DNA of 64,000 nucleotides from Candidatus Buchananbacteria bacterium (GCA_041664165.1 JBAYLH010000006.1:143-64142), one strand, 5' to 3'. Counted from the stretch's first letter, positions 5,740-60,456 are shown. Program-made: numbers and translations. Notes: a model not told the origin generated them from the letters alone.

Positions 5740-5978
5740 TAGTTGACAAAATATTACTAAAAAAATAGCTTTAATTAGCTATTTTTTTATTTTATCCACA
5801 ATTTTGTCGGAAAAAAATTGACAAGTTTTAAAATCCATTATAAGATAGCTATTATTAATATCCCGGTAGTGATCCCACACTTAATAGAGGAGATTACTGC
5901 CGGATAAAGGTTAAAACATAGTTGATAAAATATTCGTCTTTCACTTTTAATAAAACAAGTGGGGGACTACTACCGGGT

Positions 5979-6719
5979 ATGATTGAAAAAATCCTCCAAA
6001 ATTTAGGCCTAACTGACAAGGAAATCAAGGTTTATTTGTCATCTCTGAAACTGGGGCCAACACCGGTACGAAAAATTGCCCTGGAAGCCGGGATTAACCG
6101 CGGCACGACTTATGATATTTTAAAGGCTTTAATCGAGCTGGGCTTGGTCAGTTATTACCATCAGGATAAAAAGCAATATTTTATTGCCGAAGATCCGGCT
6201 AAGCTAAAGGATGTTTTAGAAAAAAAACAACAAGACTTAGAAAAGATTAAGGGCGATGTTGATCAGATTATTCCTCAACTAAAATCAATTTATGACAATG
6301 CGGAAAATAAACCGGTGGTTAAATTTTATGAAGGGGACGCCGGCGTTAAAATAATTTTACAGGACGTCATTGCCTCCTGCCTTGCGGCGGAAAAGAAAGA
6401 ATATTATGTTTATTCGTCTTCAACCATTAAAAAATATATTTATGAATTGTTTCCAGATTTTACCGATCAGCGGATTAAGGCCAACGTCAATGTCAAAGTA
6501 ATTTCGGTCGGACCGGGCGGTGAAATCCGGGGTTTAGACGAAAGAAAATGGCTGACGACCAAAGAAAGCGCCCCGACTTATACTTTGATTTATGCCGGCA
6601 AAGTGGCGATGATTTCCGTTGACAGTAATGACCGGCCGATTGGCATCATTATTGAAGATAACAATCTTTATAAAACGCAATGGATACTCTTTAATTTTGC
6701 TTGGCAGAAACTAGAATAA
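5979..6719 (+). CDS. TrmB-family transcriptional regulator (sugar-responsive type)
   Basis: MIEKILQNLGLTDKEIKVYLSSLKLGPTPVRKIALEAGINRGTTYDILKAL is the canonical TrmB N-terminal wHTH. The ORF-track start at 5922 is a TTG; the ATG at 5979 is preferred. Confidence 0.7.
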   Translation: MIEKILQNLGLTDKEIKVYLSSLKLGPTPVRKIALEAGINRGTTYDILKALIELGLVSYYHQDKKQYFIAEDPAKLKDVLEKKQQDLEKIKGDVDQIIPQLKSIYDNAENKPVVKFYEGDAGVKIILQDVIASCLAAEKKEYYVYSSSTIKKYIYELFPDFTDQRIKANVNVKVISVGPGGEIRGLDERKWLTTKESAPTYTLIYAGKVAMISVDSNDRPIGIIIEDNNLYKTQWILFNFAWQKLE

Positions 6720-8826: not shown

Positions 8827-10044
8827 GTGAAAATAATTTTATACGAAGACAATCAAGCCAGTAACTTATACCCGATTACCTTAACCCGGCCGAGTTTTGA
8901 TATTTTTTGCGGGGCGGCTAATTTAGTCCAAGTCATTAAAACAATTTTTTCCCAAGCCGGTGTTGGCTATCTGGTTCGCGATCATTTGAAAGAAATTGTT
9001 GCAAAAAAGTATCCGGCCAAAGAGGCGGATACTGGTTACGTTTTATATCTTAACGGCAGTTTAATCCCGAGTTTCACCTTAGCCAAAAAGTTGGCCGAGA
9101 CGATCAGATTTGACCAAGAATTAATTTTGAAAAATGGGGAAAAAATTATCGGGGCAATTGTCGCCGCTAATCAGCCAATTACTAATTATAACGAATTGGA
9201 AGCGTACTCAAAAAAGCTGGATTTAAAAATGATTCAAGTCCAATGGCCAAGTTTTAATTATTCCTGGGAAGTCATCGTTTATAATCAGCAAATTATTAAT
9301 GATAATTTGGATTATTTGAAAATTAATTTTAAAGAAATTAAGCCAAACGTCTTCGTCGGTGGCGGGGTCAAACTGGCCGATAACATTTCGTTTAACACCG
9401 ACAATGGCATAATTATCATCGATGAAAAGACCAAAATTTCGCCGTTTGTTTATTTAGCCGGTCCGCTTTATATCGGCTCTAACTGTCTAATTAAGGAATT
9501 CGCCGCGGTTAAAGACAAATGTTGCATTGGCCCGGTTTGCAAAATTGGCGGGGAAATAGAAGCGACGATTATTCAAGGCTATTCCAATAAGCAGCATTAT
9601 GGATTTTTAGGCCATAGTTATTTGGGCGAGTGGGTTAATATTGCCGCCGGGACTTCCAATTCCGACTTGAAAAATACCTATAGCTTGATTAAAATCGGGG
9701 GTGTTGAAACCGGCCAGCAGTTTTTGGGCACGGTCATCGGCGATTACAGCAAAACCGCCATTAATACCTCGATTTTTACCGGCCGGATCATTGGCGCCTG
9801 TAGCTTTGTTTATGGCACTATCACCCGCGATATTATTTCTTTTACCAACTATGCCGCTAATTTAGGCTGCGTTATTGAATTGGACTTCGACGTTGCCATT
9901 AAATCCCAAAAGGCAATGTTTGGCCGGCGCCAGATGGAACAAACGGCAGTAGAAATAAATTTATTAAAAAATATTTATGAGCTGACCGCCGCTGACCGGC
10001 TTGCTGCCAACGTTAAACCCGGCCGGTTGGAATTTAAAATTTAA
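8827..10044 (+). CDS. GlmU-like protein with left-handed beta-helix (hexapeptide-repeat acyltransferase) C-terminus and a degenerate nucleotidyltransferase-like N-terminus
   Basis: Hexapeptide repeats IGSNCLIKEFAAVKDKCCIGPVCKIGGEIEATII. The N-terminus is nucleotidyltransferase-like but lacks the G-rich loop. Confidence 0.55.
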   Translation: MKIILYEDNQASNLYPITLTRPSFDIFCGAANLVQVIKTIFSQAGVGYLVRDHLKEIVAKKYPAKEADTGYVLYLNGSLIPSFTLAKKLAETIRFDQELILKNGEKIIGAIVAANQPITNYNELEAYSKKLDLKMIQVQWPSFNYSWEVIVYNQQIINDNLDYLKINFKEIKPNVFVGGGVKLADNISFNTDNGIIIIDEKTKISPFVYLAGPLYIGSNCLIKEFAAVKDKCCIGPVCKIGGEIEATIIQGYSNKQHYGFLGHSYLGEWVNIAAGTSNSDLKNTYSLIKIGGVETGQQFLGTVIGDYSKTAINTSIFTGRIIGACSFVYGTITRDIISFTNYAANLGCVIELDFDVAIKSQKAMFGRRQMEQTAVEINLLKNIYELTAADRLAANVKPGRLEFKI

Positions 10045-14155: not shown

Positions 14156-14202
14156 GTCGACTGACCGCGGAATCGGGGTCATGATTTCTCCCAATGTTAA
14201 AT

Positions 14203-14236
14203 CGGGATGCCGACTAAACGTCGGCATTTATTTTTA
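14203..14236 (+). terminator. Rho-independent terminator (atgccgac-taaac-gtcggcat + T-run)
   Basis: 8-bp stem followed by ttatttttaaaa. It lies downstream of CDS 13622-14116. Confidence 0.6.
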
Positions 14237-14292
14237 AAATAATTTGTGCGTCGGGAAACCCTTGACCCCCACATTGTCCCGACAAACTTTTG

Positions 14293-17658: not shown

Positions 17659-19179
17659 TTAAAGATACTTTTTGATGTAATTTAAGCCCTGGTCTTTAGT
17701 TTTGATTTTGCCGCGCAGCTGGGCTTCGCGCAAAATTGCCAGGTATTTGCCGATCTTCGGACTGGAGACAAGCTTAAATTTTTTTATTAAATCGTGGCCG
17801 TTGACCAAAGGTTTGGGCAACTCTTTTTTATTTAAGCTGGTTTTGCCCAGTTTTTTGATGTGCTTTTGTAATTTTTGGTAGCTAGAAAAATCCGGCCGGC
17901 CGGAAGGCGGAACCGTCGCCAAGATGTCGGCAAAAATCAGCATCAATAGCTCGCGGCCGGGAAAATCAGGGTTAAAAAAATATTTTTCAATGGTGGTATC
18001 TTTCATCTCGGCCGATTTGGTATGGGTCGGCAGCATGTGTTTACTGATAATTTTAGAAATTAAGTCAATGTCTAAACCGGCCGAAGCCAATTTCAGCCGG
18101 TCGGCGATTTGACAGAATTTTTGGGCGGAAACATTATCGTGATTATTAAACCTCAGCCGGTCGGCCCGGATAATGGTGTCAGGTTTGCCGATGTCGTGGA
18201 AAAGCAAACCCCATTTAATTTCCGCCGGAACTAAAACCTCGCCGAATTCTTTTTTGAACTTTTTAGCTTTTAAATTGTTTAAAGCTAAAACCGTGTGCCG
18301 CCAGCAGTCGCCTTCCGAATGGAAATTTTTCGGCTGGGGGCATTTTTTCATTTTCAGCAATTCCGGGATCAAAATTTTTATCGCGCCTGACTGATCTAAA
18401 AGTTTTAGACCTAAAACCGGATCGGCGCTGATGGTTTTGATTAATTCTTTGGCAATGACTTCGGCGGGCACGATTCTTTCGTTATCAACGATTTTATCAA
18501 TATTTTTTATGCCCTTGACGATGGCTTGCCAAGTTTTGGTTTCAATTTTAAAACCCAGCTGGGTGGCAAATCGGATGGCGCGCAGCATTCGAGAATAATC
18601 TTCCTGAAATCTTTTTTGGGGATCGCCAACGGCTCGGATAATTTTTTTATTAATGTCAGCTAGGCCGTTAAAGGGATCAATTAGTAGGCTGGTAGGCTGG
18701 TAGGCTGGTAGGTTGGTAGAGATTTTGTAGGCCATGGCGTTGATGGTAAAATCGCGGCGGGACAAATCCGCTTCAATATTCAACTTGGCATTACTGGCAA
18801 TTTTAAAATCGTGGTAAGCGCCGGACAGGCTGGCCGAATGTTCCGTTCGGGGCAGGGCAATATCAATTTCTTCTTTTTCCCAAAGCTTCGGCCGGAATTT
18901 AAAAACCCCAAACCGTTTGCCGACTAAACTGACTTTGCCTTGAGTAGCCAAAAATTTTTCCAAAGCTGCTTTGTTGACGAGCCGGACGACAAAGTCAAAA
19001 TCATTAGTCGGCCGATTTAAAATGGCATCCCGTACGGCGCCGCCAACTAAAAAAACCTCAGCTGGCGGAAATTTTTTAGCAAGCTGATTGATGAAGGGTT
19101 TAATTTGTTCGCCTACGCTTTTTGATAAGCTTAGGGCTTGGGTCGGTAAATTTTTTTGAAGATTTTGCTTATTTTCCAT
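17659..19179 (-). CDS. cca: CCA-adding tRNA nucleotidyltransferase (pol-beta head + HD domain, Bacillus-type)
   Basis: GGAVRDAILNRPTNDFDFVV head motif, RRDFTINAMA, HDIGKP in the HD domain, and a C-terminal tRNA-binding tail. Confidence 0.8.
   Translation of the reverse strand: MENKQNLQKNLPTQALSLSKSVGEQIKPFINQLAKKFPPAEVFLVGGAVRDAILNRPTNDFDFVVRLVNKAALEKFLATQGKVSLVGKRFGVFKFRPKLWEKEEIDIALPRTEHSASLSGAYHDFKIASNAKLNIEADLSRRDFTINAMAYKISTNLPAYQPTSLLIDPFNGLADINKKIIRAVGDPQKRFQEDYSRMLRAIRFATQLGFKIETKTWQAIVKGIKNIDKIVDNERIVPAEVIAKELIKTISADPVLGLKLLDQSGAIKILIPELLKMKKCPQPKNFHSEGDCWRHTVLALNNLKAKKFKKEFGEVLVPAEIKWGLLFHDIGKPDTIIRADRLRFNNHDNVSAQKFCQIADRLKLASAGLDIDLISKIISKHMLPTHTKSAEMKDTTIEKYFFNPDFPGRELLMLIFADILATVPPSGRPDFSSYQKLQKHIKKLGKTSLNKKELPKPLVNGHDLIKKFKLVSSPKIGKYLAILREAQLRGKIKTKDQGLNYIKKYL
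18683..18721. repeat. Octamer tandem repeat (taggctgg x3 + taggttgg) inside cca coding sequence
   Basis: Perfect tandem copies that encode NLPAYQPTSLL in frame. They share the ggtagg core with the rluD repeat. Confidence 0.75.
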
Positions 19180-19419
19180 AGTTTTATTGTAGCATTAAAG
19201 CCCGAAAACACAAAAATAATAAAGTCGCCCCTCACCCACCCCATCTCCCGAAGAACCTGCCTTGACGGTAGACAGGGAGAGGGGAATTAGCTCTAACCCC
19301 CTTCTATCCCTCACTTAAATTAAGGACAAGAAGGCTTTTTTTGGGCTTGGGTTGACTAAGCTATTCAAAGCTAGTAAGCTAAAGCCAATAAATAAGCTGT
19401 TTTGACAGGAGAAACAGCG

Positions 19420-19784
19420 TTTTACGCACGTCACAACTTATTAAGGGAAGGGGAAATCGTATGTCACACGGCAGTCACAAGACAACCAAACACGGAGAAA
19501 AAGGTGATGTCCGACGGAAGTTTCACCGCGGTGGGCCTCAATGCGTTTCCAGGCGGAAGCTCAGCAAAAAGAAAAAGAATGAACAACAGTAGAGAGAAAG
19601 GGAAGGTAGCTATGGCCAGCGCCTCAAAAAAAAGAAAAGGAATTGGAGGGTGGAAGCCGGAAAATTGCCCCGGCGGCGGTAGTGAAAAGATCAAATTCCG
19701 GACACACTTAAGGTCCGGACCGAGAAAAAAGCGGCCAAAAGGGCCACCACCAAAGAACAGATAAGAGAGGAGACAACGATAACG
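19420..19784 (+). other. Purine-rich (A+G-biased) leader of about 365 nt upstream of the purM-like gene, a candidate cis-regulatory RNA
   Basis: The + strand is strongly A/G-rich. The ORF-track ORF 19402-19764 and two short basic ORFs are more likely artefacts of this composition. Confidence 0.35.
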
Positions 19785-20966
19785 ATGAAAAAGTATACGG
19801 AAGACGGAGTTGATACCGTAGAAGGCGACAGCCTCAGTGCCTGTGCTGGTAAACTTTGTGCCAGTACTTACGGGAATTCACCTTTGATCGAGGTGTATGA
19901 TATGTCGCAGGGCAACTTTCGCGGGCCAAGGGGTTATCGTTTGGTCCAAGTACCTCCCGATTGCGTGATGACCTTGGCACCCGATGGAGTCGGTACTAAG
20001 GTCGTGGTCATCGATGCTTCGTTTGGTCATCGCAAGGCCGGGTTTGACCTAGCGGCGATGACCGGGATGGACATTACTCGCTGGGGTGGCAAACCATTGG
20101 TTTTCACTAACGTGCTGGATACTTTCACGATTGGCAAACAGGGTGACAGAACTAACGTCGCCAGTCGGGAGCTTCTTGCCGGTTTAGTTGATGCCGCCAA
20201 AGTGCTTCAAATGGTTGTGCTCAATGGCGAAACAGCGGAATTGTCCAGTTGTGTTGGTTCGGAAAACCCCGACGCGACCGTGATGTTCAATTGGGCTGGT
20301 GTGGCCTGGGGTATTTATCACCCGAAAAAGATGATTCTTGGTGACACTTTGGCACCGGGACAGAGCATCATGGCTCTGAAAGATTGGTTTCGATCCAACG
20401 GTCACAGCTCAGCGCGCAAGGCTTTGGCTATGCATTTTGGGCCAAAGTGGTGGGAGAATCCTGACGCTACGGAGACTATCGCCGCTGTGGCGACGCCATC
20501 GATGTTGTATGACCCGTTTCTTAATCACGTTCACGGCTGGGACAATCCGGATTTGTGTCCGATAATACCGATCCATCTGATCGTCCATAATTCCGGCGGA
20601 GCCATCGAGGACAAATTCGCCAAAGATTTGTTATTTCCGGCGGGACTTTCAGCGGAACTCGACGACTTGTTCGATCCACCGCAGGCAATGAAAGATATTG
20701 TTACCTGGCGGGGGATGACTGATTTGGACTGGTTAGGTACCTTCAATGGTGGCCAAGGTGCTTTAGTTGTGGTTGATCCGGAAAATGAAGGTCAGTTTAT
20801 TGATTTGGCCGAGAGCTACGGAGTCACTGCCAGGCGTTGTGGTCGGATTATAGAGACTGCTGCCAGCGAAATGCCGCAGGTGTGCGTCCTTTCTAAGTTC
20901 ACTGGTGAATGGGTTACACTGAAATCGAAACCTAAACAAGCGACTACTGACGGAGGGTTAAGGTGA
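19785..20966 (+). CDS. purM: Phosphoribosylformylglycinamidine cyclo-ligase (AIR synthetase, PurM family)
   Basis: EDGVDTVEGDSL, LAPDGVGTKV, NGETAELSS and TFNGGQGALVVV align with PurM conserved blocks. GC is about 55%. Confidence 0.75.
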   Translation: MKKYTEDGVDTVEGDSLSACAGKLCASTYGNSPLIEVYDMSQGNFRGPRGYRLVQVPPDCVMTLAPDGVGTKVVVIDASFGHRKAGFDLAAMTGMDITRWGGKPLVFTNVLDTFTIGKQGDRTNVASRELLAGLVDAAKVLQMVVLNGETAELSSCVGSENPDATVMFNWAGVAWGIYHPKKMILGDTLAPGQSIMALKDWFRSNGHSSARKALAMHFGPKWWENPDATETIAAVATPSMLYDPFLNHVHGWDNPDLCPIIPIHLIVHNSGGAIEDKFAKDLLFPAGLSAELDDLFDPPQAMKDIVTWRGMTDLDWLGTFNGGQGALVVVDPENEGQFIDLAESYGVTARRCGRIIETAASEMPQVCVLSKFTGEWVTLKSKPKQATTDGGLR

Positions 20967-21706
20967 TGAATGATACAATCCGCTTTGCCATAGTTGCTTC
21001 CGGCGGCGGCACTGGTGCCAATGCGGTGATGACCGCTTACCGTAAAAAACAGTTGCTGCCGGAGTGCGAGATTGTTGAATTACTAGTTACCAAGGCTGGT
21101 GCTGACTGTTTGAAAAAGGCAGAGGCACATTAAATTCACACGACGGTTATTGCCCGCCATGGAAATTTCTGGGATGAACATCTCAAAATCGACCGGCCAA
21201 TGATGCAGAATGATTTTGAAATAGCAGTCAGCTATTGGCTTGCGGTTAATGAAATCCGGCTCGTCTTTTTGCTGGGATGTATTCACCGGATGCCTGCCGA
21301 TTGTATCGGCAAGGATGGCCGGTCGATAGTAATGTATAACATCCACCCAGCCGATCCGCTTGCCCACGGCGGCCAAGGAATGTACGGTTTAGCGCCACAC
21401 AGGCACGTTTTGGCCGAAATTCTTGACCAAATTACCCGAGAGCAGAAAGGGATAGAAGAAGAGTTTTTCACCTGGCCAACTGTTCATGAAGTGACTGCGG
21501 AATATGACCAAGGGTCGCCGTTGTTGACTCACGCCGTGAGAATATCAACGGCTATCATTGAAAAGGCGCAGGAACTGCAGCGCGCCGGCCAACCTTTGGA
21601 CGAAGCAGCCAAGATGTTGCAAGCTTTGGTGCTGCCCTGCGAGCACTTGTTGCTCCCGGCAGCAGTCAATTTAGCCTGCCAACGGATTTTGGTTGCTAAG
21701 GGCTAA
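20966..21706 (+). pseudogene. purN: Phosphoribosylglycinamide formyltransferase (PurN-like) with a single in-frame TAA at 21131-21133
   Basis: FAIVASGGGTGANAV N-terminal block, then ...KKAEAH*IHTTVIARHG..., then NIHPADPLAHGGQGMYGL (the NIHPSLLP block). Both halves are in the same frame (20966 and 21200 are both frame 2). The ATG overlaps the purM stop. Confidence 0.7.
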
Positions 21707-21788
21707 GTGAGTTGTACCTTGTAGTTATTACCGCGTTTTCTTGGTTTCGTACCGAGGATTCGCGGTCTCCCGACGTTTGCTTCGCGAA

Positions 21789-21838
21789 AATCGGGATCCC
21801 GACTCGCTGCTTCGCGGTGACGTCGGGATTTTTTTTAT
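21789..21838 (+). terminator. Terminator built on the palindromic unit atcgggatcccgac...gtcgggat + T8
   Basis: atcccgac/gtcgggat 8-bp stem with a 17-nt loop, followed by tttttttt. A second atcgggatcccgac unit lies at 21882-21933. Confidence 0.55.
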
Positions 21839-21990
21839 TATAAAATACTAATCTACGAATATCCCGATGTTTAGCTTCGCTAAAATCGGGATCCCGACTT
21901 CTTTATTATTAATAATATAATGTACGTCGGGACATCCGAATGCTGGTATCCGCGCCAGCCGGACATTACTTTTTCAAATTGAATATTCGC

Positions 21991-22035
21991 GAGTTTTGGT
22001 GAGGGGTTAAACTTGGCAAGAATAATATTACGCCC
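21991..22035 (+). repeat. Partial copy of the REP-like element tail (gagttttggtgaggggttaaacttggcaagaataatattacgccc)
   Basis: About 90% identical to 26093-26136. Confidence 0.7.
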
Positions 22036-22388
22036 AGCCGAATGCCGGTATCGGTAGTTTGACTAAACTATTAAAAATCATTAAGATTAAGCAAGTTTAG
22101 AAGCGTTGTTCTACTAAATAGTCTGCCTTTGTCCCAATAAATTGGGACTACGGCGAGACAAGTCCGCCTTCAGTCGCCTTTGGCGACTTTCGGCGAGACA
22201 AGGAGGGACAGCGTTTTTGGTACGTTTACAATCCGTGTTTCCATTCGCCCAAAGTGAGGGCGGATGTTGAGAATAGATGAAGAAGGATGGGAAACTGTCT
22301 TGAGGAAAGGTTGGGTAGAGTATGGTAGTAAAGGAAATATCTTTTTGGGATGGGCTAGGTGTATTTGGTGCGGAAAGGAGAGTGTCAC

Positions 22389-25271
22389 ATGGTTTCATCG
22401 GTCTATAAGACTAGGACCGGACTTGATCCGGCTGCCGCGCAGTTGTTTAGGCGACTGCATCAGAATGGTTATACCAAGGTAACCGCAGTTAGACTTGAAC
22501 GAGTACTCCGGGTCGAAGGTGTTGATCCTGAACAAGTCGATAAGTTAATGCCACTTTTTTTCCATCCAGTTTTGGAGGAGATAAGTGGTGCTTCTCTGCT
22601 TGATGAAGCAATGGGGCCGATAGTTGAAGTCTGCTATCAGCGCGGTGTTACCGATCCGGAACTCAAGTCAACCAGGCATGCCGCCCAAGCTTTGGGCGTC
22701 GACAATCTGGAATGGGCGCGTTTGGCAACCCGCTATCAATTCTTTGGCGTGGATGGTCAAACTGCCCGTGAGATTGGTAAACGTTTTCTCTATAACGATC
22801 AAGTGGAAACCGTTATCGAACCCGGAGAAATTTGGGAAACACTTAAGCCGCAGGGAAAATCTGTCGGCGTAGAGTATCTCGATATAGCCAATATGGACAT
22901 CGAGGCGATGAGAACTTTGTCGTCCAAGCGCCGTTTGTTTATGGATGATGCCCAACTTCTCGCCGTTCGACTCTTCTTTGCTGAAACCGAACCACACTTG
23001 ATGCGCGATGGCGAACTGGAAATGACGGCAGCGGCCTGGGGTGATCACTGCAACCACACGGCGATGAAATCACTTGGTTTGCTACAAAGGATTCAGCAAG
23101 CCACGGCGCGGATTAACCATCCGCTGCTAATTTCGGCTTTTGTTGACAACTCTGGCGTGATGGAATTCTTCCTCGGCCAAGCCATCAATTTCAAGGGTGA
23201 AACCCACATCTCGCCTTCGTCACTAGCTACCTATGGTGGAATCATGACCAAGCACGGTGGAGTAATTCGTGATATCCAGTTTACCGGTCAAGGTGCTTGG
23301 CCGATTGCTGGGACAACGATTATGGGCATTTGTGATCCCAGGATTGCCTGGGTCGATGTTCCTAAAGGTGCACTTCATCCGCTGGTGATTTTGTTGGAAT
23401 CTATTCGGGGTACCAAGGACTACTGTAATCCGATGGGGATTCCAATGGCTTGGTCGCAATACCTAGTTCATCCCGGGAACGTTAAGTGTCTTGCCCTTGG
23501 TCATTCAATTGGAATTATGCCGGCAGATCGGGCGCAAAAGGGTGAACCACAACCCGATGATCTCGTCGTTTTGATCGGCGGGGATACTGGTAATGACGGG
23601 ATGCACGGAGCCACGGTTAGCAGTGCCGGATTGACTCATGAAAGCGCGGCAGTTGACGGCACCCACGTTCAGATCGGTATGCCAATTGAAGAGCGGGTGT
23701 TTATGGAAGCCATTCCGGTTCTTCGTGATGCCAACTGTATTCGCGCTTGTACTGATTGCGGTGCGGCTGGTTTGTCTTCGGCCGTGGGTGAGATGGGCAG
23801 CAAGACCGGGGTGTTTGTAAACCTGGCTTTTGTGCCACTCAAAACCCGAGGGTTGAAGCGTTGGGAAATCTGGCTTTCGGAAAGCCAGGAACGCGGCGTG
23901 CTGGCTATTCCGCCAGATAAACTTGAGTTAGCGTTGCAGATTTTGCGCGACTACGGTGTTCCAGTAACTGTCATCGGCGTGTTTACCGACACTAAACGTT
24001 GTCAGGTTATCTATGACGAAAGTCAAAACTACGGTACTTGGTTAACCAATCGGACTACTAGCTTGGCCGGCGAAGTCGTTGTTGATTTGCCCTACGGTTT
24101 TCTGTCGCAGGAATGCCCGTTACCCAAAATTGAAGTGAGAGAACCCAAAGAGAAGCCGGAGGCATTTCGGCCGTCGGTGCCAGCTAATGAGCCAGCCTGG
24201 GTCGGTTTGGTTCAAAAACACTTAGGCCAGTTCAATATTTCGGATCAGTCAGGCGCCGCGCATCAATTTGATCAGACGGTTCAGGGTGCAACTCGGTTGG
24301 CGTATATGGGAGGATATGATGAACGGATGCCTGACGAGCTCATGGCTACTACGCCGATTTTGGGTGAATCTTATACAGTTGGTCTGGCTAATGCCTGTAA
24401 TCAATTCTATGGTGATGTTGACCCGGCCGGTCAAGGTCGGTTGGTGATGGCTCAGGCGATGACGAGGCTGGTGGCAGCCGGTTTTTCGTCTGACGACATT
24501 GTCTGTAACGTCAACCTTTACACCTCACGAGTCGTTGGTTTTCCCGAGAATGCCTGGCGGTTGAAGCAATTGGTCGAGTATGGCTACGCTCCGGCGTCGG
24601 AAGAACTCGGCATGCCAGTGGGTTCTGGTAAGGACAGTTGTAGCGGCACTTTTGCCACTGCCGATGGTCGCCACATTCACGCGCCATTGACTCTAGATGT
24701 CTTGGCCGTGGGTCGGATGCCGGACTACAGACGACTGATTCCTAAGGCCTTCTCGCAGCCTGGTGACAAGCTGGTGCTGTTTCATCAAGGTCTGAAGGAA
24801 ATCAATCTCGGTGGATCAGTGTTTCTAGATTTGTTTGACCATCGTCGTGGCGACAAGTTACCGGTCTTGGATCTCAAAGACCTGCGTCGTGGACTCATTA
24901 ACTACCATCAGATGCTAATGAGTCTTAATTGGTCGGCGGGTGTTCACTCGCGATCGGTTGTGGCCGAAGGCGGATTGATTCGGCGGTTGTTTGAGATGTG
25001 TTACGGCGGCGATTTAGGCTGCAAAATCGACCTGCCCGAAAGTTGTGATGGCGTTTTGGAGTGGCTGTTTGGTGAACCCAATAGTGCGATTCTTTTGGCC
25101 GTTCCAGAAGTTGATCCGTTGCTGAATTCGCTAAGCGAATGCACCGTTCTTGGAGAAGTCACGGCCGAACCGACAATGGCCGTTTCTTATCACAGAGAGC
25201 CGCTTTTCTCCGAAACGATAGCGACTTTGGCAACTAACTGGGCGAAGACCTTTACGGAGGTGGTCATATGA
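22389..25271 (+). CDS. purL: Phosphoribosylformylglycinamidine synthase subunit PurL with N-terminal PurS-like extension (PurS-PurL fusion)
   Basis: DHCNHTAMKS, GGVIRDIQFTGQGAWPIAG, GDTGNDGMHGATVSSA, VQIGMPIEE and WLSESQERGVLAI match PurL blocks. SD aaggagag lies upstream of the ATG at 22389. Confidence 0.8.
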   Translation: MVSSVYKTRTGLDPAAAQLFRRLHQNGYTKVTAVRLERVLRVEGVDPEQVDKLMPLFFHPVLEEISGASLLDEAMGPIVEVCYQRGVTDPELKSTRHAAQALGVDNLEWARLATRYQFFGVDGQTAREIGKRFLYNDQVETVIEPGEIWETLKPQGKSVGVEYLDIANMDIEAMRTLSSKRRLFMDDAQLLAVRLFFAETEPHLMRDGELEMTAAAWGDHCNHTAMKSLGLLQRIQQATARINHPLLISAFVDNSGVMEFFLGQAINFKGETHISPSSLATYGGIMTKHGGVIRDIQFTGQGAWPIAGTTIMGICDPRIAWVDVPKGALHPLVILLESIRGTKDYCNPMGIPMAWSQYLVHPGNVKCLALGHSIGIMPADRAQKGEPQPDDLVVLIGGDTGNDGMHGATVSSAGLTHESAAVDGTHVQIGMPIEERVFMEAIPVLRDANCIRACTDCGAAGLSSAVGEMGSKTGVFVNLAFVPLKTRGLKRWEIWLSESQERGVLAIPPDKLELALQILRDYGVPVTVIGVFTDTKRCQVIYDESQNYGTWLTNRTTSLAGEVVVDLPYGFLSQECPLPKIEVREPKEKPEAFRPSVPANEPAWVGLVQKHLGQFNISDQSGAAHQFDQTVQGATRLAYMGGYDERMPDELMATTPILGESYTVGLANACNQFYGDVDPAGQGRLVMAQAMTRLVAAGFSSDDIVCNVNLYTSRVVGFPENAWRLKQLVEYGYAPASEELGMPVGSGKDSCSGTFATADGRHIHAPLTLDVLAVGRMPDYRRLIPKAFSQPGDKLVLFHQGLKEINLGGSVFLDLFDHRRGDKLPVLDLKDLRRGLINYHQMLMSLNWSAGVHSRSVVAEGGLIRRLFEMCYGGDLGCKIDLPESCDGVLEWLFGEPNSAILLAVPEVDPLLNSLSECTVLGEVTAEPTMAVSYHREPLFSETIATLATNWAKTFTEVVI

Positions 25272-25990
25272 GTGAAAGAGTGAGAGTTTTAATACCGTAT
25301 TTTCCGGGTGTTAATTGCCACCGAGAAACAATGTACGCTTTCAGGAGCGTTGGAGCTGAACCGAGACTAGGATTACTTTCGGCCTTAATGGATGGAACCT
25401 GTCGTCTCGATGACTGCGATATCCTCGCTTTAGCCGGCGGCTTTGCTTTCGGTGATGATCACGCCGCCGGTCGGGTGATGGCTATTGACTTGACACGACG
25501 CTTCGGTGATCAATTGAGGCGAGTTGTCGAAAAACATATTCCGGTTATCGGGATCTGCAATGGCTTTCAAGCCCAAATGGAAACAGGGCTATTGCCTGGC
25601 GATGGCGAAATTGGTCAACCGACTGCGGTTTTGGATCATAACGTCACGGCTAGGTTTGAGCACTGGCGGTTTACGCCAGTTGTTTTGCACGATCCGGTTG
25701 ACGTTGGCTGCGTTTGGACCAAAGGCCTAGATGGAGCCAAGATTCGTCTGCCGTCCGCACATGGACAAGGATTTCCGGTGCTACCTAATGGCCCGGACTC
25801 GTATCACGTCATGGCGACATACGGTGCCTATGAAGGCGATAGTACCTACATCGGCGTTGGTGGCTCTAGCCCCAATGGCAGTAAAATTGCCGGACTTTGT
25901 ACCAAGTACTGCGCCGGTTTGATGCCTCATCCCGAACGGTCTGAGGATGGTCTAGTCATCTTCGAGGCAGGGGTTAATTCTGTTCGTTGA
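25268..25990 (+). CDS. purQ: Phosphoribosylformylglycinamidine synthase glutamine amidotransferase subunit PurQ
   Basis: GICNGFQ nucleophile motif and HPER. Its start overlaps the purL stop (ATGA). Confidence 0.8.
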   Translation: MSERVRVLIPYFPGVNCHRETMYAFRSVGAEPRLGLLSALMDGTCRLDDCDILALAGGFAFGDDHAAGRVMAIDLTRRFGDQLRRVVEKHIPVIGICNGFQAQMETGLLPGDGEIGQPTAVLDHNVTARFEHWRFTPVVLHDPVDVGCVWTKGLDGAKIRLPSAHGQGFPVLPNGPDSYHVMATYGAYEGDSTYIGVGGSSPNGSKIAGLCTKYCAGLMPHPERSEDGLVIFEAGVNSVR

Positions 25991-26032
25991 TTTGTCCTAC
26001 CGCGTGGCTTTCCTTTGGGAGAGCCCGCGGTC

Positions 26033-26136
26033 TTTTTTTAGTATTTGTCTGCGAGGGCAAGCCGATAGGTGCTGCCCGAGCAGTTACAAATACTAAGTTT
26101 TGGTGCGGGGTTAAACTTGGTAAGAATAATATTACC
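26033..26136 (+). repeat. Structured REP-like element: long imperfect hairpin (ttagtatttgtctgc...gcagttacaaatactaa) plus tail ttttggtgcggggttaaacttggtaagaataatattac
   Basis: 10+4 bp stem. An inverted copy lies at 34590-34660 and a partial tail copy at 21991-22035. It sits just after the purQ terminator hairpin. Confidence 0.75.
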
Positions 26137-26261
26137 CATACATCCAAAACTACCAATAATAGGTAAACAAAAAATCACTCCGGTTTTTCGGAGAGATTCT
26201 AAATCTTGTCAAAATAAGTTAATAAATATATAATAGGAAAGTTTAAAAGAGTTGTTGGCCA

Positions 26262-26338
26262 GCCCATGTAGCTCAGTTGGTTAGAGCGCCACCCTTATAA
26301 GGTGGATGTCCCTGGTTCAAGTCCAGGCATGGGCACCA
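26262..26338 (+). tRNA. tRNA-Ile with genomically encoded anticodon UAU, CCA encoded
   Basis: GCCCATGTAGCTCAGTTGGTTAGAGCGCCACCCTTATAAGGTGGATGTCCCTGGTTCAAGTCCAGGCATGGGCACCA, anticodon loop CTTATAA. Confidence 0.8.
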
Positions 26339-26403
26339 TATAAAATTGAATAGTTGACAATTGGCGGATTATCGCTTATTCTAAAAAAGTTAACATTTAT
26401 TAA

Positions 26404-26480
26404 GGGCGTATAGCTCAGTTGGTTAGAGCGTTACGTTGACATCGTAAAGGTCCGTGGTTCGAGTCCACGTACGCCCACCA
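26404..26480 (+). tRNA. tRNA-Val (anticodon GAC), CCA encoded
   Basis: GGGCGTATAGCTCAGTTGGTTAGAGCGTTACGTTGACATCGTAAAGGTCCGTGGTTCGAGTCCACGTACGCCCACCA. Confidence 0.9.
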
Positions 26481-26481
26481 A

Positions 26482-26512
26482 AAAATCTCTGTGAAAATTC
26501 AGGGATTTTTTG
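26482..26512 (+). terminator. Rho-independent terminator after the tRNA pair
   Basis: atctctg-tgaaaatt-cagggat followed by tttttg. Confidence 0.6.
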
Positions 26513-26591
26513 TTTTAAAAAATCTGAACGCGGGGTTCAGCATCTTCATCTTTGTTGGGATTTTTAGCCATGCTAGAAATTGGCCGGGTTT

Positions 26592-30276: not shown

Positions 30277-31368
30277 ATGGATCAAACTGAGCAAATAAAA
30301 AGGATGCTTTTTTTCTGCATCGAAACCGCCTTAGAACGAGGGGCTTCGGATATTCATCTTTCGCCCGGCGCTCCACCTCGGATCCGGTGGCATGGCAAGA
30401 TCGTTGATCTTGATTGGCCAGTTATCAATCCGTCTGATACCGAACAAGCCATGAGGCTGCTTTTAGCCAAGGATAACCAAGATGAGGTTATCGGACCGAA
30501 TGGTGATGCTGATTTCGCTAAAACCTTTGACCAGTTTCAAGCTCGGTTTCGCGGTAACATCTGCCGGACCCAGAATGGCCTAGTCATTGCGTTGCGGCAT
30601 TTGCCTAATGACATTCCGGCAATGGAGGAGATAGGTTTGCCCAGCCAAGTGATTCAGCGTTTACTCTCTTGCCAGCAAGGTGGCATTATTTTAGTCACCG
30701 GCCCGACTGGTTCTGGTAAGACGACGACTTTAGCTTCAATGATTAACTACTTGAATGTGACTCGGGCGTTACACATTATTACGGTTGAGGCGCCGGTAGA
30801 GTATGTTCACCCACACAAGAGATCAAGTGTTGATCAGCGGGAAATGCCGCTGGATACGCCGTCGTTTGCAGCGGCGGTTCGGTGTGCTTTACGTCAGGAT
30901 CCTGACGTGATTTTGGTCGGTGAAATGCGCGACTTAGAAACCATTGCGGCCGCGATCACAGCGGCGGAAACCGGCCATATGGTCTTAGCCACTCTGCATA
31001 CTAATTCGGCGGCGGATACGATTAACCGGATTATTGATGCGTTTCCGCTTAGCCAGCAGTCACAGATTAGGGTTCAATTGGCCACGTCTTTGCTGGCGGT
31101 GATTTCTCAGCGACTTTTGCCGCGGGCCGATGATTCCGGTCGGGTAGCGGCTTTCGAGTTGATGATCAATAACACGGCGATCAGGTCTCATATCCGCGAT
31201 AACAAAACGTTGCAGATTAACTCAACGATTGAAACCAGCAAGAAAGAGGGGATGGTTCGTTTTGATGATCATTTGGCCGGGCTAGTTAGTAAGAGGATTG
31301 TGGCTTTTGAAACCGCTTTGAAGTTTGCCTGCGAGCCGAAAGATTTTCCCGGCCGGGTAAATCGGTAA
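30277..31368 (+). CDS. pilT: Type IV pilus retraction ATPase PilT/PilU family
   Basis: Walker A GPTGSGKTTTL, Asp box, His box, PilT-type length (363 aa). Confidence 0.8.
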   Translation: MDQTEQIKRMLFFCIETALERGASDIHLSPGAPPRIRWHGKIVDLDWPVINPSDTEQAMRLLLAKDNQDEVIGPNGDADFAKTFDQFQARFRGNICRTQNGLVIALRHLPNDIPAMEEIGLPSQVIQRLLSCQQGGIILVTGPTGSGKTTTLASMINYLNVTRALHIITVEAPVEYVHPHKRSSVDQREMPLDTPSFAAAVRCALRQDPDVILVGEMRDLETIAAAITAAETGHMVLATLHTNSAADTINRIIDAFPLSQQSQIRVQLATSLLAVISQRLLPRADDSGRVAAFELMINNTAIRSHIRDNKTLQINSTIETSKKEGMVRFDDHLAGLVSKRIVAFETALKFACEPKDFPGRVNR

Positions 31369-34734: not shown

Positions 34735-35706
34735 TCAGGCGCGCGGCAGGGATTCGAGAAAGCGCTGTCGAGTGAAAAGGGAAAAATCGCAGCGATCCGG
34801 ATCGATGGCCTGATTGGCCAACGAGAACAATACCGGAAGGCAGGTCCTCTCGCCGGGAAGAAGCTGCACTTCAGAGCCGATGTCTTCCATCTCAACCATT
34901 GCTGGACCGGGGTTTCCCGTCTTTGACCACGGACCAACGTACATCGCGGCGTTGCACCCGGGGATGGGGTAGGACAAATTGCGATCGAAAGGCATCGCGG
35001 CCTTGAATAGCGTTTGGTCGCTGTCCGGCATAATCATGGCTTGCCCGCCAAAGGGGGAACACCAGGCGCGTTTAGCCTCAAAGCCAGTTGGCCGGAGAAG
35101 GTGCAGCCACTGCCCGTTCATGATAGTTCGACTGAATTGCGCATCGCCTTCGGCGCTGGTTTCGTGGCCACCACCCCAGCTTGGGAAGTGCACGATCGTG
35201 GATGAATCCCAAGCAGCATTGCCGGTGTTCAAGCGACTGGCGTAGAACGCGTTGGTACCCACCGGGTCGGTGCAGGTGATTGGCCAGATTCCGCCGGCAA
35301 TGAGCATATCTCCGGCATTCTCGACGAAGTTGACCACCTCGACCATGTTGTCCGCTAGGGGCCGGACAATGAACCCTTTGACAAGCTGCATTGCGTCCGG
35401 AGGTGCCGTGAAAACGAAGCTGTCGTCATCGAGCGATTTGATTTCGATTGGGCCAGTGTCGGGAGTGTAAGCCCCGTCGTGTTCGTCCGCGCCCTTCGAT
35501 GCCCACCAGATCCGGTGGCCACCGATCAACTTCCACAACCCGCGCCCGAACTTACCCTTCGAATCGAAATAGAGCAAGTTCCTTTCCATGCTTGAGCCGA
35601 GATGGACGATTCGCAGAGCCGTCGTGAGGATCACCAGTTCGATTCCGGGCAGACTTAGTTGAAATGCTGGTTGATCATGAAAATCAACGTACTTTCCCGT
35701 AAACAT
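34735..35706 (-). CDS. Hypothetical protein, 323 aa, GC-rich (about 58%), no recognizable domain
   Basis: A long ORF with SD aggagt upstream and a dedicated terminator. Its composition is unlike the flanking genes. Confidence 0.55.
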   Translation of the reverse strand: MFTGKYVDFHDQPAFQLSLPGIELVILTTALRIVHLGSSMERNLLYFDSKGKFGRGLWKLIGGHRIWWASKGADEHDGAYTPDTGPIEIKSLDDDSFVFTAPPDAMQLVKGFIVRPLADNMVEVVNFVENAGDMLIAGGIWPITCTDPVGTNAFYASRLNTGNAAWDSSTIVHFPSWGGGHETSAEGDAQFSRTIMNGQWLHLLRPTGFEAKRAWCSPFGGQAMIMPDSDQTLFKAAMPFDRNLSYPIPGCNAAMYVGPWSKTGNPGPAMVEMEDIGSEVQLLPGERTCLPVLFSLANQAIDPDRCDFSLFTRQRFLESLPRA

Positions 35707-47172: not shown

Positions 47173-47473
47173 ATATTTTTAGTATAACAAAAAACACCTC
47201 CCCCTGTTTACCGGCCCGCTATGCCGAAGCGTCAGCGAGGCGAGCAGGCAGGCGAAATAGGGGAGATGCCTTCTCCTGAAACTACGAACACTTTAGCAGG
47301 TTCAGGCGACCTACAGGAATTTCCGCCAGAGGCGGATCTGCTTTTTGTATTTAATAAGGTGGCGGGAAACCCGTAGCGAGAGTGCCACCCGCCCGCCTGA
47401 GCGGCAAATATAAAAGCACATAGGGGTGGCTAGAGGGAATCGTCCCGATTTTAGAATAATCAATCAACTCAAG

Positions 47474-47547
47474 GGTGGCCTACGGGAATCGAACCCGTAA
47501 CGAGAGTGCCACAAACTCTAGTGATAACCATTTCACCAAGGCCACCA
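47474..47547 (-). tRNA. tRNA-His (anticodon GUG) with encoded G-1
   Basis: RC reads G-GTGGCCTTGGTGAAATGGTTATCACTAGAGTTTGTGGCACTCTCGTTACGGGTTCGATTCCCGTAGGCCACC. Confidence 0.85.
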
Positions 47548-47617
47548 TAAAGCCACCTTTGAGTTGATATTGTCAATCGGGATCCCGACTTCATTAATAA
47601 TATAATAATTTTTTGGG

Positions 47618-47690
47618 TCGGGAAACCCTCAACGAGAGTGCCACAAACTCTAGTGATAACCATTTCACCAAGGCCACCATGGACTAATTT
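47618..47690 (-). pseudogene. Pseudo-tRNA-His: intact 5' two-thirds, deleted T-loop and lost 3' acceptor strand
   Basis: 47640-47690 is identical to 47497-47547. The T-arm is reduced to gggtttcccgac and the acceptor 3' strand is replaced by an A-run. Confidence 0.7.
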
Positions 47691-50023: not shown

Positions 50024-53000
50024 ATGCAAGCTCGCTGGCTAAATTTGTTTTTTCGTTATTCCGGCTACACCTTTAAGTTAAAGCAAAAAATAATCGGCGC
50101 CGACAATTGGCTGGTCGCCGGGTCTTATGCCGTCTTGTTGATTGTTTCCGAATTGGGTTTTACGGTTGTGTCTTTGCCGATTTACATTTTAGTACCGCCG
50201 ACAAAAGTCCAGGAAGAGGGGTTTGTTTTTCCCAAAGCAATTAAAGATAAGCCGCAATTTCAAACTTATGCGGTCAGAAGGAAAATTAGCTTAGCTACTT
50301 TTTTTGGGGCGGGGGGGATTTTTTTATTAAAGCTTATTTTTATCGGTTTGGTTTCATCTTATCTTTTAGGGGCTCAAGCGCTTTTAGCCGCCAGCCAGGA
50401 TTGGAATTTCAGCACGGCAGGCGATTACACTTATCCGGCTGGTAAAATTGTAGTTACGGGTGGAGTAGCTCAACTAGTAGATCAAGGCACGGGCGGAAAC
50501 TGTTTGGGTACGGCAAATGCCTGCAATACTTTTGTTACCTCGCCAACTTGCATTGCCCAAGCCGGCTGTGCGTGGGGTGGAGCGGCTTCGGGTGCTACCA
50601 CTAATCCGGACTTTACCTCTAACTCCACTGGCTGGACCGGCGCCGACTGGCTCTGGACGGCGACGACGGAAACTCGGGTAACGTCGGGGGGTAATCCAAC
50701 CGCTTTTATTCAGGTTAATATTCCTAAGGCTAAAAATATCATCGGCGGGGGCTATTGGTATCAGGCATTCACGACGACGGCTGCTAATCCGACGGCGACG
50801 GTAAGCTTTGATTGGAAAAGTATTGCTTACGCCGCTGGCACCTCCGTAACGGCCTATGTTTTTGTTGATACCGGTTTTGGTGTGCCGACTATCGGTTCGC
50901 AGGTTTGGTCACAGACAATTACCGCTACAACGGCCTGGGCGTCGGTAACTAATATTAATGTGTCTTCAAAAGTTGCGGCGGCCGGAACTTATTATTTGAA
51001 AGTTGCTTACTATGTTACCGGCGGCAGTGGAAGTGTTGGCCCATTTACGGTTGGTTTCGATAACGTGCAGCTTAATTGGTCTAAGGCCGCCAGTTGCACC
51101 GGTACGCCAACGGCCTGCAATGCTTTTGTCACCTCGCCAACTTGCACCGCGCAGGGCGGTTGCGCTTGGAATACTGTGTCTGTTTATCCGACGGATTCTC
51201 CTGCCATTTATCCCAATACTTCACTGGCTCCCGCCGGGGTTACCAACTGGAATTTATTTACTGAAACCGCCACGAAAAACGGCGGTGCCATTAATTATCA
51301 GCTTTCCGATGATGAAGGTGTTACTTGGCAATATTGGAACGGCTCGGCTTGGGCCGCGGCATCTACCGCCGCTAATTCCAATTCCGCTTCGGTGATTAAT
51401 ACCAATATTGCTTCGTTTTCCGCCGCCGCCGGCAAAATAAAATGGCAAGCATTTTTAGTCAGCAACGGTTCGCAGCAGATTATCTTAGATAATGTTTCTA
51501 TCGGTTATACGCAAAATGCGGCGCCCAGTGTTCAAAGCTTAACGGCGGCGCAAGACACTTCTTCCGGTTTTGTCCGCATCAATTATAATTTGCAGGATGG
51601 TAATAGCGATTCAATCAATTTGGTAAATTATGAATATTCTTTAACCGGCGCTTTTACTGGCGAAGAATTACCCATGACTGCCGCTAGCGATCCGGCGCAT
51701 AGCGGAATAACCGCCTTGACCAGCTCGCCGACCGGCGTGGCTCACGCCTTTGTCTGGAATGCCGGAAACGATTTAGGGTCGGTGTTTGCCAATACTATTT
51801 ATATCCGGTTGCGCGCCTATGATGGCATCACAAATAGTGGCTATGAAGTCTCGGCGGCAGTGAGTGCGGACTACGTTTTACCGGTTGTTTCGGCGGTAGC
51901 CGCGGTGCAAATGCCGGCCAGCGCCGATATTCAAATTGGTTATAATTTGTTTGATCATACGGCGGATAATATTTTAGTTGAATTGCAAGTTTCTTCGGAT
52001 GGGGGATTGAACTGGACCGTGCCCGTTACATCAGTCAGCGGCGATATCGGTTCGACGGTTTCTAGCGGTAACGGCAAGTCAATCATTTGGCAGGCGGGTA
52101 CGGATTTTGCCAACCAGGAACAGAATAACATGATGGTTAGAGTCCGCGCCAAAGACAAATATCAAAATCAGGGTAATTATATTGACTCAGCAAGTTTTGT
52201 TTTGGATAATCGCGCGCCCATAATTGCCGCGCCGGTAAATTTATTAGCCCAGCCTTTGGCCGGCGCGACGACGGTTTTAGTTGGTGGGAGTTTTAGCGAA
52301 GGCAATCCCAATACTAATAATTTTTACGTAGCGCTTAATGGCAACGCTTACGGCTCAGCCGAAGCCGGCGATACCAATACGGCGACGCCTTCGGATAAAA
52401 GCGTTTCGGCGGCGGCAACTTTGGACGGCAATGATTATATTTCGGCGGTAAAAATAGAGCACGCTGATGATTTTGGCCATTTGACGGTTAATGAAAATAC
52501 TTCGCCCAACTCCGCCTATAAATATGTAAAGCCGTATACTCCGCCAGCGCCGACGGTCGGTGCTTTAGCGGAAAATTCCGTTGAGGTAACAATTAACAAG
52601 CATTCTGCCGAGACAGATGGCTTAAAATATGCGATTTTTGAAAACACGCAAAGTTTATACGTGCAAAGCGACGGCTCTTTGAATTCCAATCCGGATTGGC
52701 AAGCCGCGGGCACCGTTACGGTTACTGGCTTGTCGCAGCCGATTTCGCAATATATTTTTCAAGTCAAATCGCGAAATACCAGCGATACCGGCTTGGCAGC
52801 CACCAGCGAAAGCGATTATTCCAGTGGGGCTTCTTCCAGCTACCAATCCCCGCAGGTGGTTATTAATTCCGTCGCTCAGACAACGAATGACACTAAGTAT
52901 GTGGTGATAAATTACACCGGCACTGATCATCAAAATCAAGCGAACAATTTAACCAAATACGAATATTCCCTTAATGGTACGGATTGGCAAGTAATGACAG

Positions 53001-55654: not shown

Positions 55655-55661
55655 TAATTTT

Positions 55662-58643: not shown

Positions 58644-58667
58644 TAATTTAATAAGATTGCAAAAACT

Positions 58668-59039
58668 ATGAAAAAAATTCTGTTAATCATTGATGATGAG
58701 CCGACCGTTCTTGAAGCCCTATCATCACAGTTTGATCAAGAAAAGGTCAGCGTTTTAACGGCTAAAGACGGCCAAGAAGGCTTAAAAATTGCTTTGGAAA
58801 ATCATCCGGATTTGATTTTGCTTGATTTGATAATGCCTAAAATGGACGGGATGACGATGCTAACCAAATTAAGAGATGACGAATGGGGCAAAACCGCCGA
58901 GGTAATAATTTTAACTAACTTAAGCGATGCCCAAAAAGTCGCCGAAGCGGTCGATCGCGGCACTTATGAATATTTAGTCAAAGTAAATTGGAATGTCAGC
59001 GACGTGGTTAATAAAGTTAAGAATAAATTGGGCTTGTAA
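58668..59039 (+). CDS. Stand-alone response-regulator receiver protein
   Basis: REC domain with LILLDLIMPKMDG, 123 aa, 25 nt after the kinase gene. Confidence 0.8.
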   Translation: MKKILLIIDDEPTVLEALSSQFDQEKVSVLTAKDGQEGLKIALENHPDLILLDLIMPKMDGMTMLTKLRDDEWGKTAEVIILTNLSDAQKVAEAVDRGTYEYLVKVNWNVSDVVNKVKNKLGL

Positions 59040-60440: not shown

Positions 60441-60456
60441 CCTAAGTATTGCATGT

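Follow-up and report, generated by a model that had tools for sequence, protein, structure and literature searches.

A mosaic purine gene cluster at a conserved locus of Patescibacteria, with an interrupted purN and a pur-specific leader hairpin

We analyzed a 64,000-nucleotide (nt) stretch of Candidatus Buchananbacteria (GCA_041664165.1 JBAYLH010000006.1:143-64142; hereafter the window), which is a contig of the Patescibacteria or Candidate Phyla Radiation (CPR), together with contigs of its relatives (labelled L001, L009, L014, etc.). Between cca on the upstream side (minus strand) and a tRNA-Ile(tat)/tRNA-Val(gac) pair on the downstream side, the window carries purM, an interrupted purN, purSL and purQ (Table 1). 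In our assessment, this block is likely to be a long-resident, lineage-typical CPR cluster for de novo purine synthesis, which encodes divergent, genuine enzymes, has been altered by gene replacement within the CPR, and is partly eroded here. PurN would convert glycinamide ribonucleotide (GAR) to formylglycinamide ribonucleotide (FGAR) with 10-formyl-tetrahydrofolate, PurSL and PurQ would convert FGAR to formylglycinamidine ribonucleotide (FGAM) with ATP and glutamine, and PurM would convert FGAM to aminoimidazole ribonucleotide (AIR) with ATP. The genes would form two transcription units (purM-purN and purSL-purQ), each with its own sigma-70-like promoter, hairpin and U-run; non-orthologous replacement among CPR lineages would keep the block compositionally distinct; and the early part of the pathway would have eroded, with purD absent and purN carrying a nonsense codon, so that PurM, PurSL and PurQ remain. 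The PurN, PurLQS and PurM homologs that a first-pass annotation of this DNA had placed between cca and the tRNA pair were confirmed by open reading frames (ORFs) and by Pfam and NCBIfam matches. Its description of a partial pathway is right for the contig, which holds only steps 3 to 5 with step 3 broken and purD absent. Pfam scans of all ORFs of at least 120 amino acids (aa) revealed no further purine genes in the 64 kb and tblastn with the PurD proteins of relatives found no match in the window, in agreement with the earlier statement that purF/D/E/K/C/B/H are not seen there.

The order cca, pur, tRNA-Val/Ile and DHH is conserved in at least three related Patescibacteria lineages. In L009, L014 and L158, the genes L19-gmk-rluD-cca (cca on the minus strand) lead into the pur cluster or its leader, and in L009 and L014 the tRNA-Val(gac)/tRNA-Ile(tat) genes and DHH come after the pur cluster. 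The cca of the window is 65-69% identical to the cca genes beside these three pur clusters, and the flanking proteins are 64-77% identical to those of the window, the three lineages being about equidistant. In L009, L011 and L014, purD lies directly upstream of purM. The PurD of L014 and the large PurL of L009 pass their NCBIfam equivalog cut-offs (394 vs. 288 and 802 vs. 783, respectively), and in the syntenic relatives the PurM and PurN types of the window adjoin bona fide PurD and large PurL. Hence, of the earlier suggestion that the block is a horizontally acquired cassette, the exchange of genes among CPR relatives stands, but the cluster itself is old at its site.

The gene types within this conserved locus form a mosaic. 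The window lacks purD and carries PurM type A and PurN type A (interrupted) with PurSL and PurQ; L009 has purD, PurM type A, PurN type A and a fused large PurL; L011 has purD, PurM type A, PurN type B and a large PurL; and L014 has purD, a near-canonical PurM of type B, PurN type B, PurSL and PurQ. Identities between the window and L009 are 75% for PurM, 41% for PurN and 23% for PurL (PurSL against large PurL), whereas those between the window and L014 are 62.5% for PurSL and 66% for PurQ, with no detectable PurM or PurN match. The closest relatives found, L164 (PurM 82%) and L163 (PurSL 77%), both carry PurN type B adjoining, and the closest homologue of the PurN-A of the window has 61% identity. 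Because the PurN split and the PurL split are mutually incompatible on any single tree, the mosaic implies that genes would have been replaced in situ, one by one, by exchange among CPR lineages, of which we infer the direction and timing. The source-named close homologues are all from the CPR (Patescibacteria, Falkowbacteria, Doudnabacteria, Uhrbacteria and Parcubacteria), with the sole exception of one metagenome-assembled genome labelled Xanthomonadaceae. The locus clearly exemplifies non-orthologous replacement, gene by gene, within an operon whose position is conserved, and it shows how a block can stay compositionally 'foreign' over a long time.

L165 carries a compact purN-A/large purL/purM-A module, and the comparison suggests that the PurN-PurL-PurM trio is a recurrent, standard CPR arrangement; in other CPR genomes, the pur genes are scattered. 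Such a cluster is not exotic for the CPR, because complete de novo purine synthesis to inosine monophosphate was reported in 32% of 399 CPR genomes (PMC11608272), that is, in about one third, and the earlier expectation that it would be unusual for an episymbiont finds no support. In the literature, we found nothing specific on an oddity of CPR purL/purM. The cluster shares with bacterial purine operons (purD, purN, purL/purSQ, purM) the same enzyme families, consecutive steps and clustering, to which the relatives add purD. It differs in that its proteins are CPR subtypes under the equivalog cut-offs, its units are separately promoted, its purN is a pseudogene and its purD is absent.

The block had been described as a GC-rich island with a coding GC of 55-58%, which is overstated: the four pur genes measure 0.49-0.52 and the block 51%, against a window mean of 0.439 and flanking-gene values of 0.433 (cca), 0.439 (glmS) and 0.381 (tyrS). 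GC at third codon positions (GC3) is only modestly raised (0.47-0.56 vs. mostly 0.39-0.50 elsewhere in the window), much of the GC excess lies at codon positions 1 and 2 with few Lys and Ile, and other genes of the window are equally or more GC-rich (e.g., 34735-35706 at 0.568 and 30277-31368 at 0.499). The distinctness of the block is nevertheless borne out by its tetranucleotide composition, which makes it the top outlier of the window (distance 31.7-35.1 vs. 11.6-27.3 elsewhere), and the difference in codon style was likewise found, with the four pur genes ranking 5th, 6th, 8th and 11th of 45 in atypical codon use. The contrast is stronger in the relatives, where the pur genes of L009 and L014 have a GC of 0.51-0.55 and a GC3 of 0.55-0.63, against 0.34-0.42 and 0.29-0.42 in the flanks. 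Since relatives show the same contrast more strongly, the 'island' is an old, shared feature of the locus; the impression of a foreign island stems from a compositional signature common to related genomes. Separately, the ORF at 34735-35706 (minus strand) is the most GC-rich of the window (GC3 0.673), has no Pfam match and ranks second in atypical codon use; it is a better candidate for recent acquisition than the pur block.

The frame of purN is open except for one in-frame TAA at codon 56, while more than 60 PurN homologues are all uninterrupted (220-246 aa). We read this TAA as a probable recent null (nonsense) allele, because it aligns to a variable column (N, Q, D or G in homologues), every invariant residue is kept (including the invariant catalytic N125, H127 and D181), and a start at the in-frame ATG after the TAA would remove a core strand. 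The stop is probably one transition away from a Gln codon, and two assemblies, along with their respective gene calls, contain it. Recoding or readthrough of the TAA was considered and rejected, since purN itself terminates with TAA and the codon stands at a variable column. Decay of the same gene type was found in two relatives. In L001, a 903-kb CPR contig, a 76-aa ORF at 5931-6161 corresponds to PurN-A minus about 165 internal codons, in frame, and this remnant lies directly upstream of an intact large purL and purM; in L016, a C-terminal remnant of PurN-A (9894-9974) lies immediately ahead of an intact purSL-purQ. Thus, purN-A would have been inactivated independently three times, with its FGAM synthase neighbours whole in each case. 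As purN makes up 12-16% of the target size per case, we estimate that it would be the sole casualty three times by chance with p ∼0.003. Either purN-A is redundant with another formyltransferase, or there is a purN-independent reason for keeping purL and purM. This repeated decay is relevant to the sequence in which symbionts lose their pathways, and to the scoring of pathway completeness when CPR metabolism is reconstructed.

No remnant of purD was found by tblastn and blastn (E up to 100) in the 605-nt spacer between cca and purM. The long purine-rich leader at the start of the block, which the first-pass annotation had correctly noted and which is the most purine-rich 350-nt stretch in the window (rank 1 of 1273), was considered as a degraded purD and rejected: it has no such similarity at E up to 100, and a short stretch of it matches the purM leader of L164. 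That purD was lost here rather than never present would be the parsimonious reading.

The remaining enzymes are divergent and look intact. PurM contains both AIR synthetase domains (PF00586, 31.4 bits against a cut-off of 24; PF02769, 27.3 against 23.1) and the DGVGTK motif, and all 18 of its PDB matches are AIR synthetases, while its TIGR00878 score of 85.2 bits does not reach the equivalog cut-off of 236. It belongs to a divergent CPR-type subfamily of more than 290 homologues in Patescibacteria, most at about 50% identity, which adjoins purD, purN and purL in relatives, and it departs from the family at only 1 of 74 conserved columns (controls 0-3). PurSL has the PurL core of two halves that each contain AIRS_C (PF02769, 125 bits) and, at its PurS-like N-terminus, matches PF02700 (26.8 bits); its residues 254-955 match FGAM synthases. 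Homologues of about 955 aa, of which thousands exist and which the JGI labels 'subunit PurSL', span 99% of the protein; for this reason, and as a separate purQ is the norm of the family, an N-terminally truncated, frameshifted large PurL was rejected. The start of purSL is most likely the ATG at 22389, with a Shine-Dalgarno sequence AAGGAGAG 8 nt before it. PurQ matches GATase_5 (119 bits, E 2.7e-34), and its translation contains GICNGFQ and MPHPER (HPE) motifs, which we take to be the Cys-His-Glu triad of the glutaminase. Once rejoined, PurN scores above the Pfam cut-off for Formyl_trans_N (29.9 vs. 26.1). The NCBIfam equivalog cut-offs are not reached by PurL (308 vs. 648), PurQ (105 vs. 178) or PurN (36 vs. 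150). PurSL with PurQ is a two-subunit FGAM synthase that stands between PurS/PurL/PurQ on one side and the single-chain large PurL on the other, and the window matches this type (about 955-970 aa, PurS-like N-terminus, separate translationally coupled purQ); the architecture is alike, and the copy in the window differs by substitutions at family-conserved sites. Relaxed selection on PurM and PurSL was not borne out by relative-rate tests against the nearest relatives, which showed no consistent acceleration (chi-square <1.2 in four of five tests for PurSL; mixed, 0.02-6.4, for PurM). Either PurM and PurSL are still under selection or their erosion is very recent.

Several observations weigh against the reading of an old, partly eroded cluster of genuine enzymes. 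All four proteins lie far under the equivalog cut-offs, and their canonical activity is predicted from sequence. PurSL departs at 8 of 176 family-conserved columns (control median 2) and has a Thr-to-Ala change within the invariant WGDHCNHT motif. The two assemblies that bear the TAA show 100% identity across 7970 nt and may go back to the same reads, and the polarity of the purD change is weakened by the lack of a remnant and by the near-trichotomy of the lineages. Moreover, a persistent high GC3 at an ancient site would need repeated replacement or selection, as we infer from the mosaic, and purF, purD, purT, purE, purC, purB and purH may or may not be present elsewhere in the genome, beyond the window. 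One could suppose a fully functional cluster, with purD located elsewhere and the TAA of purN due to an error of sequencing or assembly, or to a minority allele. Such a cluster would be in keeping with a single lesion in an otherwise perfectly conserved frame, with the likely derivation of the stop from a Gln codon that homologues use, and with the scattered pur genes of other CPR genomes. We regard it as improbable, given that both assemblies and both sets of gene calls contain the TAA and that purN ends with TAA, which is therefore a stop codon here. Less credible still is an island acquired recently as a single cassette from a GC-richer non-CPR donor and integrated beside tRNA genes; indeed we consider it very improbable, and it is already largely refuted by synteny. 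Like tRNA-linked genomic islands, the block has a deviant composition (top tetranucleotide outlier, atypical codon use), tRNA genes at one border (the right) and a short direct repeat, here of 40 nt. Unlike them, it occurs at the same site in relatives (the pur cluster in L009, L014 and L158, the same tRNA pair in L009 and L014), and the repeat brackets purSL-purQ only. Furthermore, neither the block nor its immediate surroundings contain an integrase, transposase or phage gene, CPR proteins are the closest homologues of each of its genes, and the GC3 contrast in the window is small. A phage vector was rejected as well, the best phage homologues being only 23-27% identical.

We also weighed whether PurSL/PurQ and PurM act without PurN and PurD, turning scavenged FGAR (or its riboside from a host), or a formylglycinamide relative, into an aminoimidazole. 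The threefold inactivation of purN-A beside intact FGAM synthase genes, with its low chance estimate, would fit, as would the absence of consistent rate acceleration in PurM and PurSL of the window; and PurSL, like its whole family, has KGETH(N/I)SP where canonical PurL has ETHNHP. However, the pattern would also be explained if these genomes encoded purD and a further formyltransferase (PurT or the other PurN type) at another locus; in relatives, these enzyme types occur together with a bona fide PurD and PurN, and no transporter or import-type gene is linked to the cluster. We find such salvage unlikely, and less likely as a novelty than the new RNA element described below. The related proposal of the first-pass annotation that the enzymes may act on a non-canonical substrate has nothing positive to support it, though purL and purM stay intact where purN decayed.

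The new item of this locus is a leader, composed of a promoter and a hairpin, which in this clade was found before purD, purM and purL only. Copies of the module stand ahead of purD, purM and purL/purSL in the window, L009, L011, L014, L143/L084, L152, L158, L160 and L163. A sigma-70-like site, TTGACT-N17-TAAGAT, is followed 15-25 nt downstream by a hairpin, 5'-ACGUUGUC...GACAGCGU-3', with a loop or internal loop ending in (A)GGAGG and then U4-6. The apical part is variable, from 7 nt up to some 110 nt with additional stems, of which some have UUCG loops and covary in their own right, and in copy 2 of the window the apex is extended by two tandem sub-hairpins; such variable, covarying apical stems are typical of functional RNA hairpins. 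Across 12 copies, the 12 pairs of helix P1 are 94.4% paired, compared with 48-59% when the partners are slid, four pairs are changed on both sides, and many changes preserve G-U. A covariance model scores 39-58 bits on the sense strand only and only upstream of purD, purM and purL; it recovers the L163 copy, which was left out of training, and in the 64-kb window it detects the two pur leaders and nothing else. The purL-type leaders continue for another 100-150 conserved nt with a second hairpin, P2, in which three of nine pairs show compensatory changes (six leaders), and they are 84-86% identical before non-orthologous purL genes. As a side observation, the called start of the 1353-aa large PurL in L009 (8842) falls within this leader, at the ATG with which hairpin P2 ends; the true start is probably further downstream, and the first 25-45 called residues are likely leader sequence.

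The conservation and covariation indicate that the leader hairpin is probably a regulatory RNA, which would regulate each unit. Its position and U-run suggest a transcription attenuator, but the U-run is able to pair with an upstream A-run, so the element could equally well bind a protein or be a hairpin that stabilises the 5' end. A DNA operator is disfavoured by the G-U-preserving changes, the loops of 7 to about 110 nt and the strand-specific model scores. Leader peptides were rejected because candidate ORFs shift frame or length between orthologous leaders, and so was a 120-aa ORF at 19402-19764 as a gene, since an ORF of this kind is expected by chance in T-poor sequence. The purine-rich leader that contains most of it has a 21-nt imperfect direct repeat, and its segment 19519-19537 is common to the L164 purM leader. 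It is possible, on balance doubtful, that the GGAGG hairpin, the U-run and the two-hairpin purL leader constitute a new RNA element that responds to the purine pathway and is private to one CPR clade, which could be a riboswitch or an attenuator controlled by a protein or by a nucleoside triphosphate. The module of about 90-200 nt before every pur gene might also serve as portable homology for the swapping of single pur genes. A pur-specific candidate cis-regulatory RNA matters because regulatory RNAs in the CPR are poorly known.

Among known systems, B. subtilis pyrG has a promoter-proximal terminator/attenuator leader without an aptamer. Attenuators of this type share with the leader of the window a promoter, a short leader, a hairpin with U-run and a nucleotide-biosynthesis gene; they differ in that the initially transcribed sequence of the pur leaders is not conserved and has no homopolymer run to support reiterative transcription, and in that the U-run can pair with the A-run. 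The purD RNA motif of epsilon-proteobacteria (PMC1950547) and the Fibro-purF motif (PMC7668255) are narrow-range leaders before early purine genes, and have in common with the element of the window a pur-only upstream position, covariation, modular stems and an unproven ligand. The leader of the window, in contrast, is a single GGAGG-loop hairpin with a U-run directly after the promoter, before three different pur genes, and has no sequence or structure match to these motifs in Rfam at E up to 1. Rfam, whose models cover the purine, ZTP and PRPP riboswitches among others, gave no match at the gathering threshold across the window and, at E up to 1 within 19150-22420, nothing except a chance mir-9 match. 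A scan of genome contigs with a 17-nt motif proved too unspecific: chance hits occurred, and among the matches listed the sole additions were L084 and L092. A metagenome scan with the promoter pattern yielded 26 stretches, in which all true motif copies lie in pur clusters and no new regulon member outside pur clusters was found. The promoter pattern also matched leaders of pyrG (CTP synthase) in L142, L145 and L155, with a promoter-proximal hairpin and U-run; these matches in unrelated bacteria are due to chance, though the layout is similar.

Table 1. Features of the pur block and its borders; positions are counted from the first nucleotide of the window.
Feature	Position	Strand	Remarks
cca (CCA-adding enzyme/PolyA_pol family)	17659..19179	-	PF01743; conserved left flank
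Promoter-like site TTGACT-17-TAAGCT, purM-purN unit	19352..19380	+	same module type in relatives
pur-leader hairpin, copy 1	19381..19433	+	covariance model 49 bits, E 5e-9; fold -10.9 kcal/mol; stem GCUGUUU/AAACAGC, loop ending GGAG, then UUUU
Purine-rich 5' leader	19434..19784	+	67.5% A+G
purM, CPR-type ('PurM-A'), predicted AIR synthetase, step 5	19785..20966	+	AIRS and AIRS_C domains
purN, CPR-type ('PurN-A'), predicted GAR formyltransferase, step 3	20966..21706	+	in-frame TAA at 21131-21133
purN terminator stem (ACCGCG...CGCGGT)	21730..21836	+	-57.9 kcal/mol, z -6.1
40-nt direct repeat, copy 1	21992..22031	+	95% identical to 26096-26135
Promoter-like site TTGACT-17-TAAGAT, purSL-purQ unit	22059..22087	+	
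pur-leader hairpin, copy 2	22088..22227	+	covariance model 50 bits, E 3e-9; fold -60.5 kcal/mol, z -6.1
Second hairpin (P2) of purL-type leader, CAUUCGCCC-AAAGUGA-GGGCGGAUG	22242..22266	+	9 pairs, compensatory changes
purSL (PurS-like N-terminal domain and PurL synthetase subunit), predicted FGAM synthase, step 4	22389..25271	+	
purQ, predicted glutaminase subunit of FGAM synthase	25268..25990	+	4-nt overlap with purSL
Intrinsic terminator of purSL-purQ	25999..26039	+	-25.9 kcal/mol, z -5.7, then U7
REP-like long hairpin, 59 nt	26038..26096	+	-32.7 kcal/mol, z -6.7
40-nt direct repeat, copy 2	26096..26135	+	
tRNA-Ile(UAU) and tRNA-Val(GAC)	26262..26480	+	conserved right flank; inverted relative to L009 and L014

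The spacers of the block carry further structures. In the relatives, the same purN terminator stem is directly followed by T7-8, whereas in the window a palindromic insert of some 65 nt, TCCCGACG...CGTCGGGA (21763-21828), with TCGGGATCCCGA inside, separates the stem from its T-run. As the first-pass annotation had noted, the spacers share small palindromic repeats with the rest of the window: TCGGGATCCCGA occurs at 21791, 21886 and 47577, and with one mismatch at 14202. Relatives of the 65-nt insert were also seen near tRNA genes, at about 14202-14262 and 47575-47628. The structured REP-like element reported at the end of the block is present as well. The two 40-nt direct repeats, for which no occurrence is expected by chance, bracket exactly the segment of leader, purSL, purQ, terminator and REP, not the whole block, and were not found in the loci of relatives; they may be the footprint of a replacement event or a duplicated spacer element.

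At the right border, a tRNA-Ile with a UAU anticodon is present at the locus in three lineages (window 26262-26338, L009 14839-14914 and L014 13896-13970); the usual alternative is a CAU anticodon modified to lysidine. The tRNA-Ile/tRNA-Val segment of the window (26165-26515), whose orientation is opposite to that in L009 and L014, has inverted repeats of 30 nt at its two ends (26165-26194 and 26486-26515, 73% complementary), and these repeats could have mediated the inversion.

Elsewhere in the window, positions 1-1298 hold only the 3' end of a 23S rRNA gene (844-1088, model positions 2656-2912) and a 5S rRNA gene. A LAGLIDADG homing-endonuclease ORF (176-706) precedes this 3' end and most likely belongs to an intron inside the 23S gene; such introns are common in the CPR. 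Positions 47624-47680 repeat the segment 47492-47548 at 96%, nearly all of the latter being part of tRNA-His (47473-47545, minus strand), and shorter related repeats are also found within 47363-47680, the repeat being a partial tRNA duplication or a pseudo-tRNA. Finally, 50024-62628 encodes a protein of 1876 aa that bears Ig-like and fn3 domains, along with two proteins of ice-binding-like/SpaA fold, with a sortase (62787-63812) downstream; codon use in that region is atypical, and the products of 50024-62628 are probably surface or adhesion proteins.

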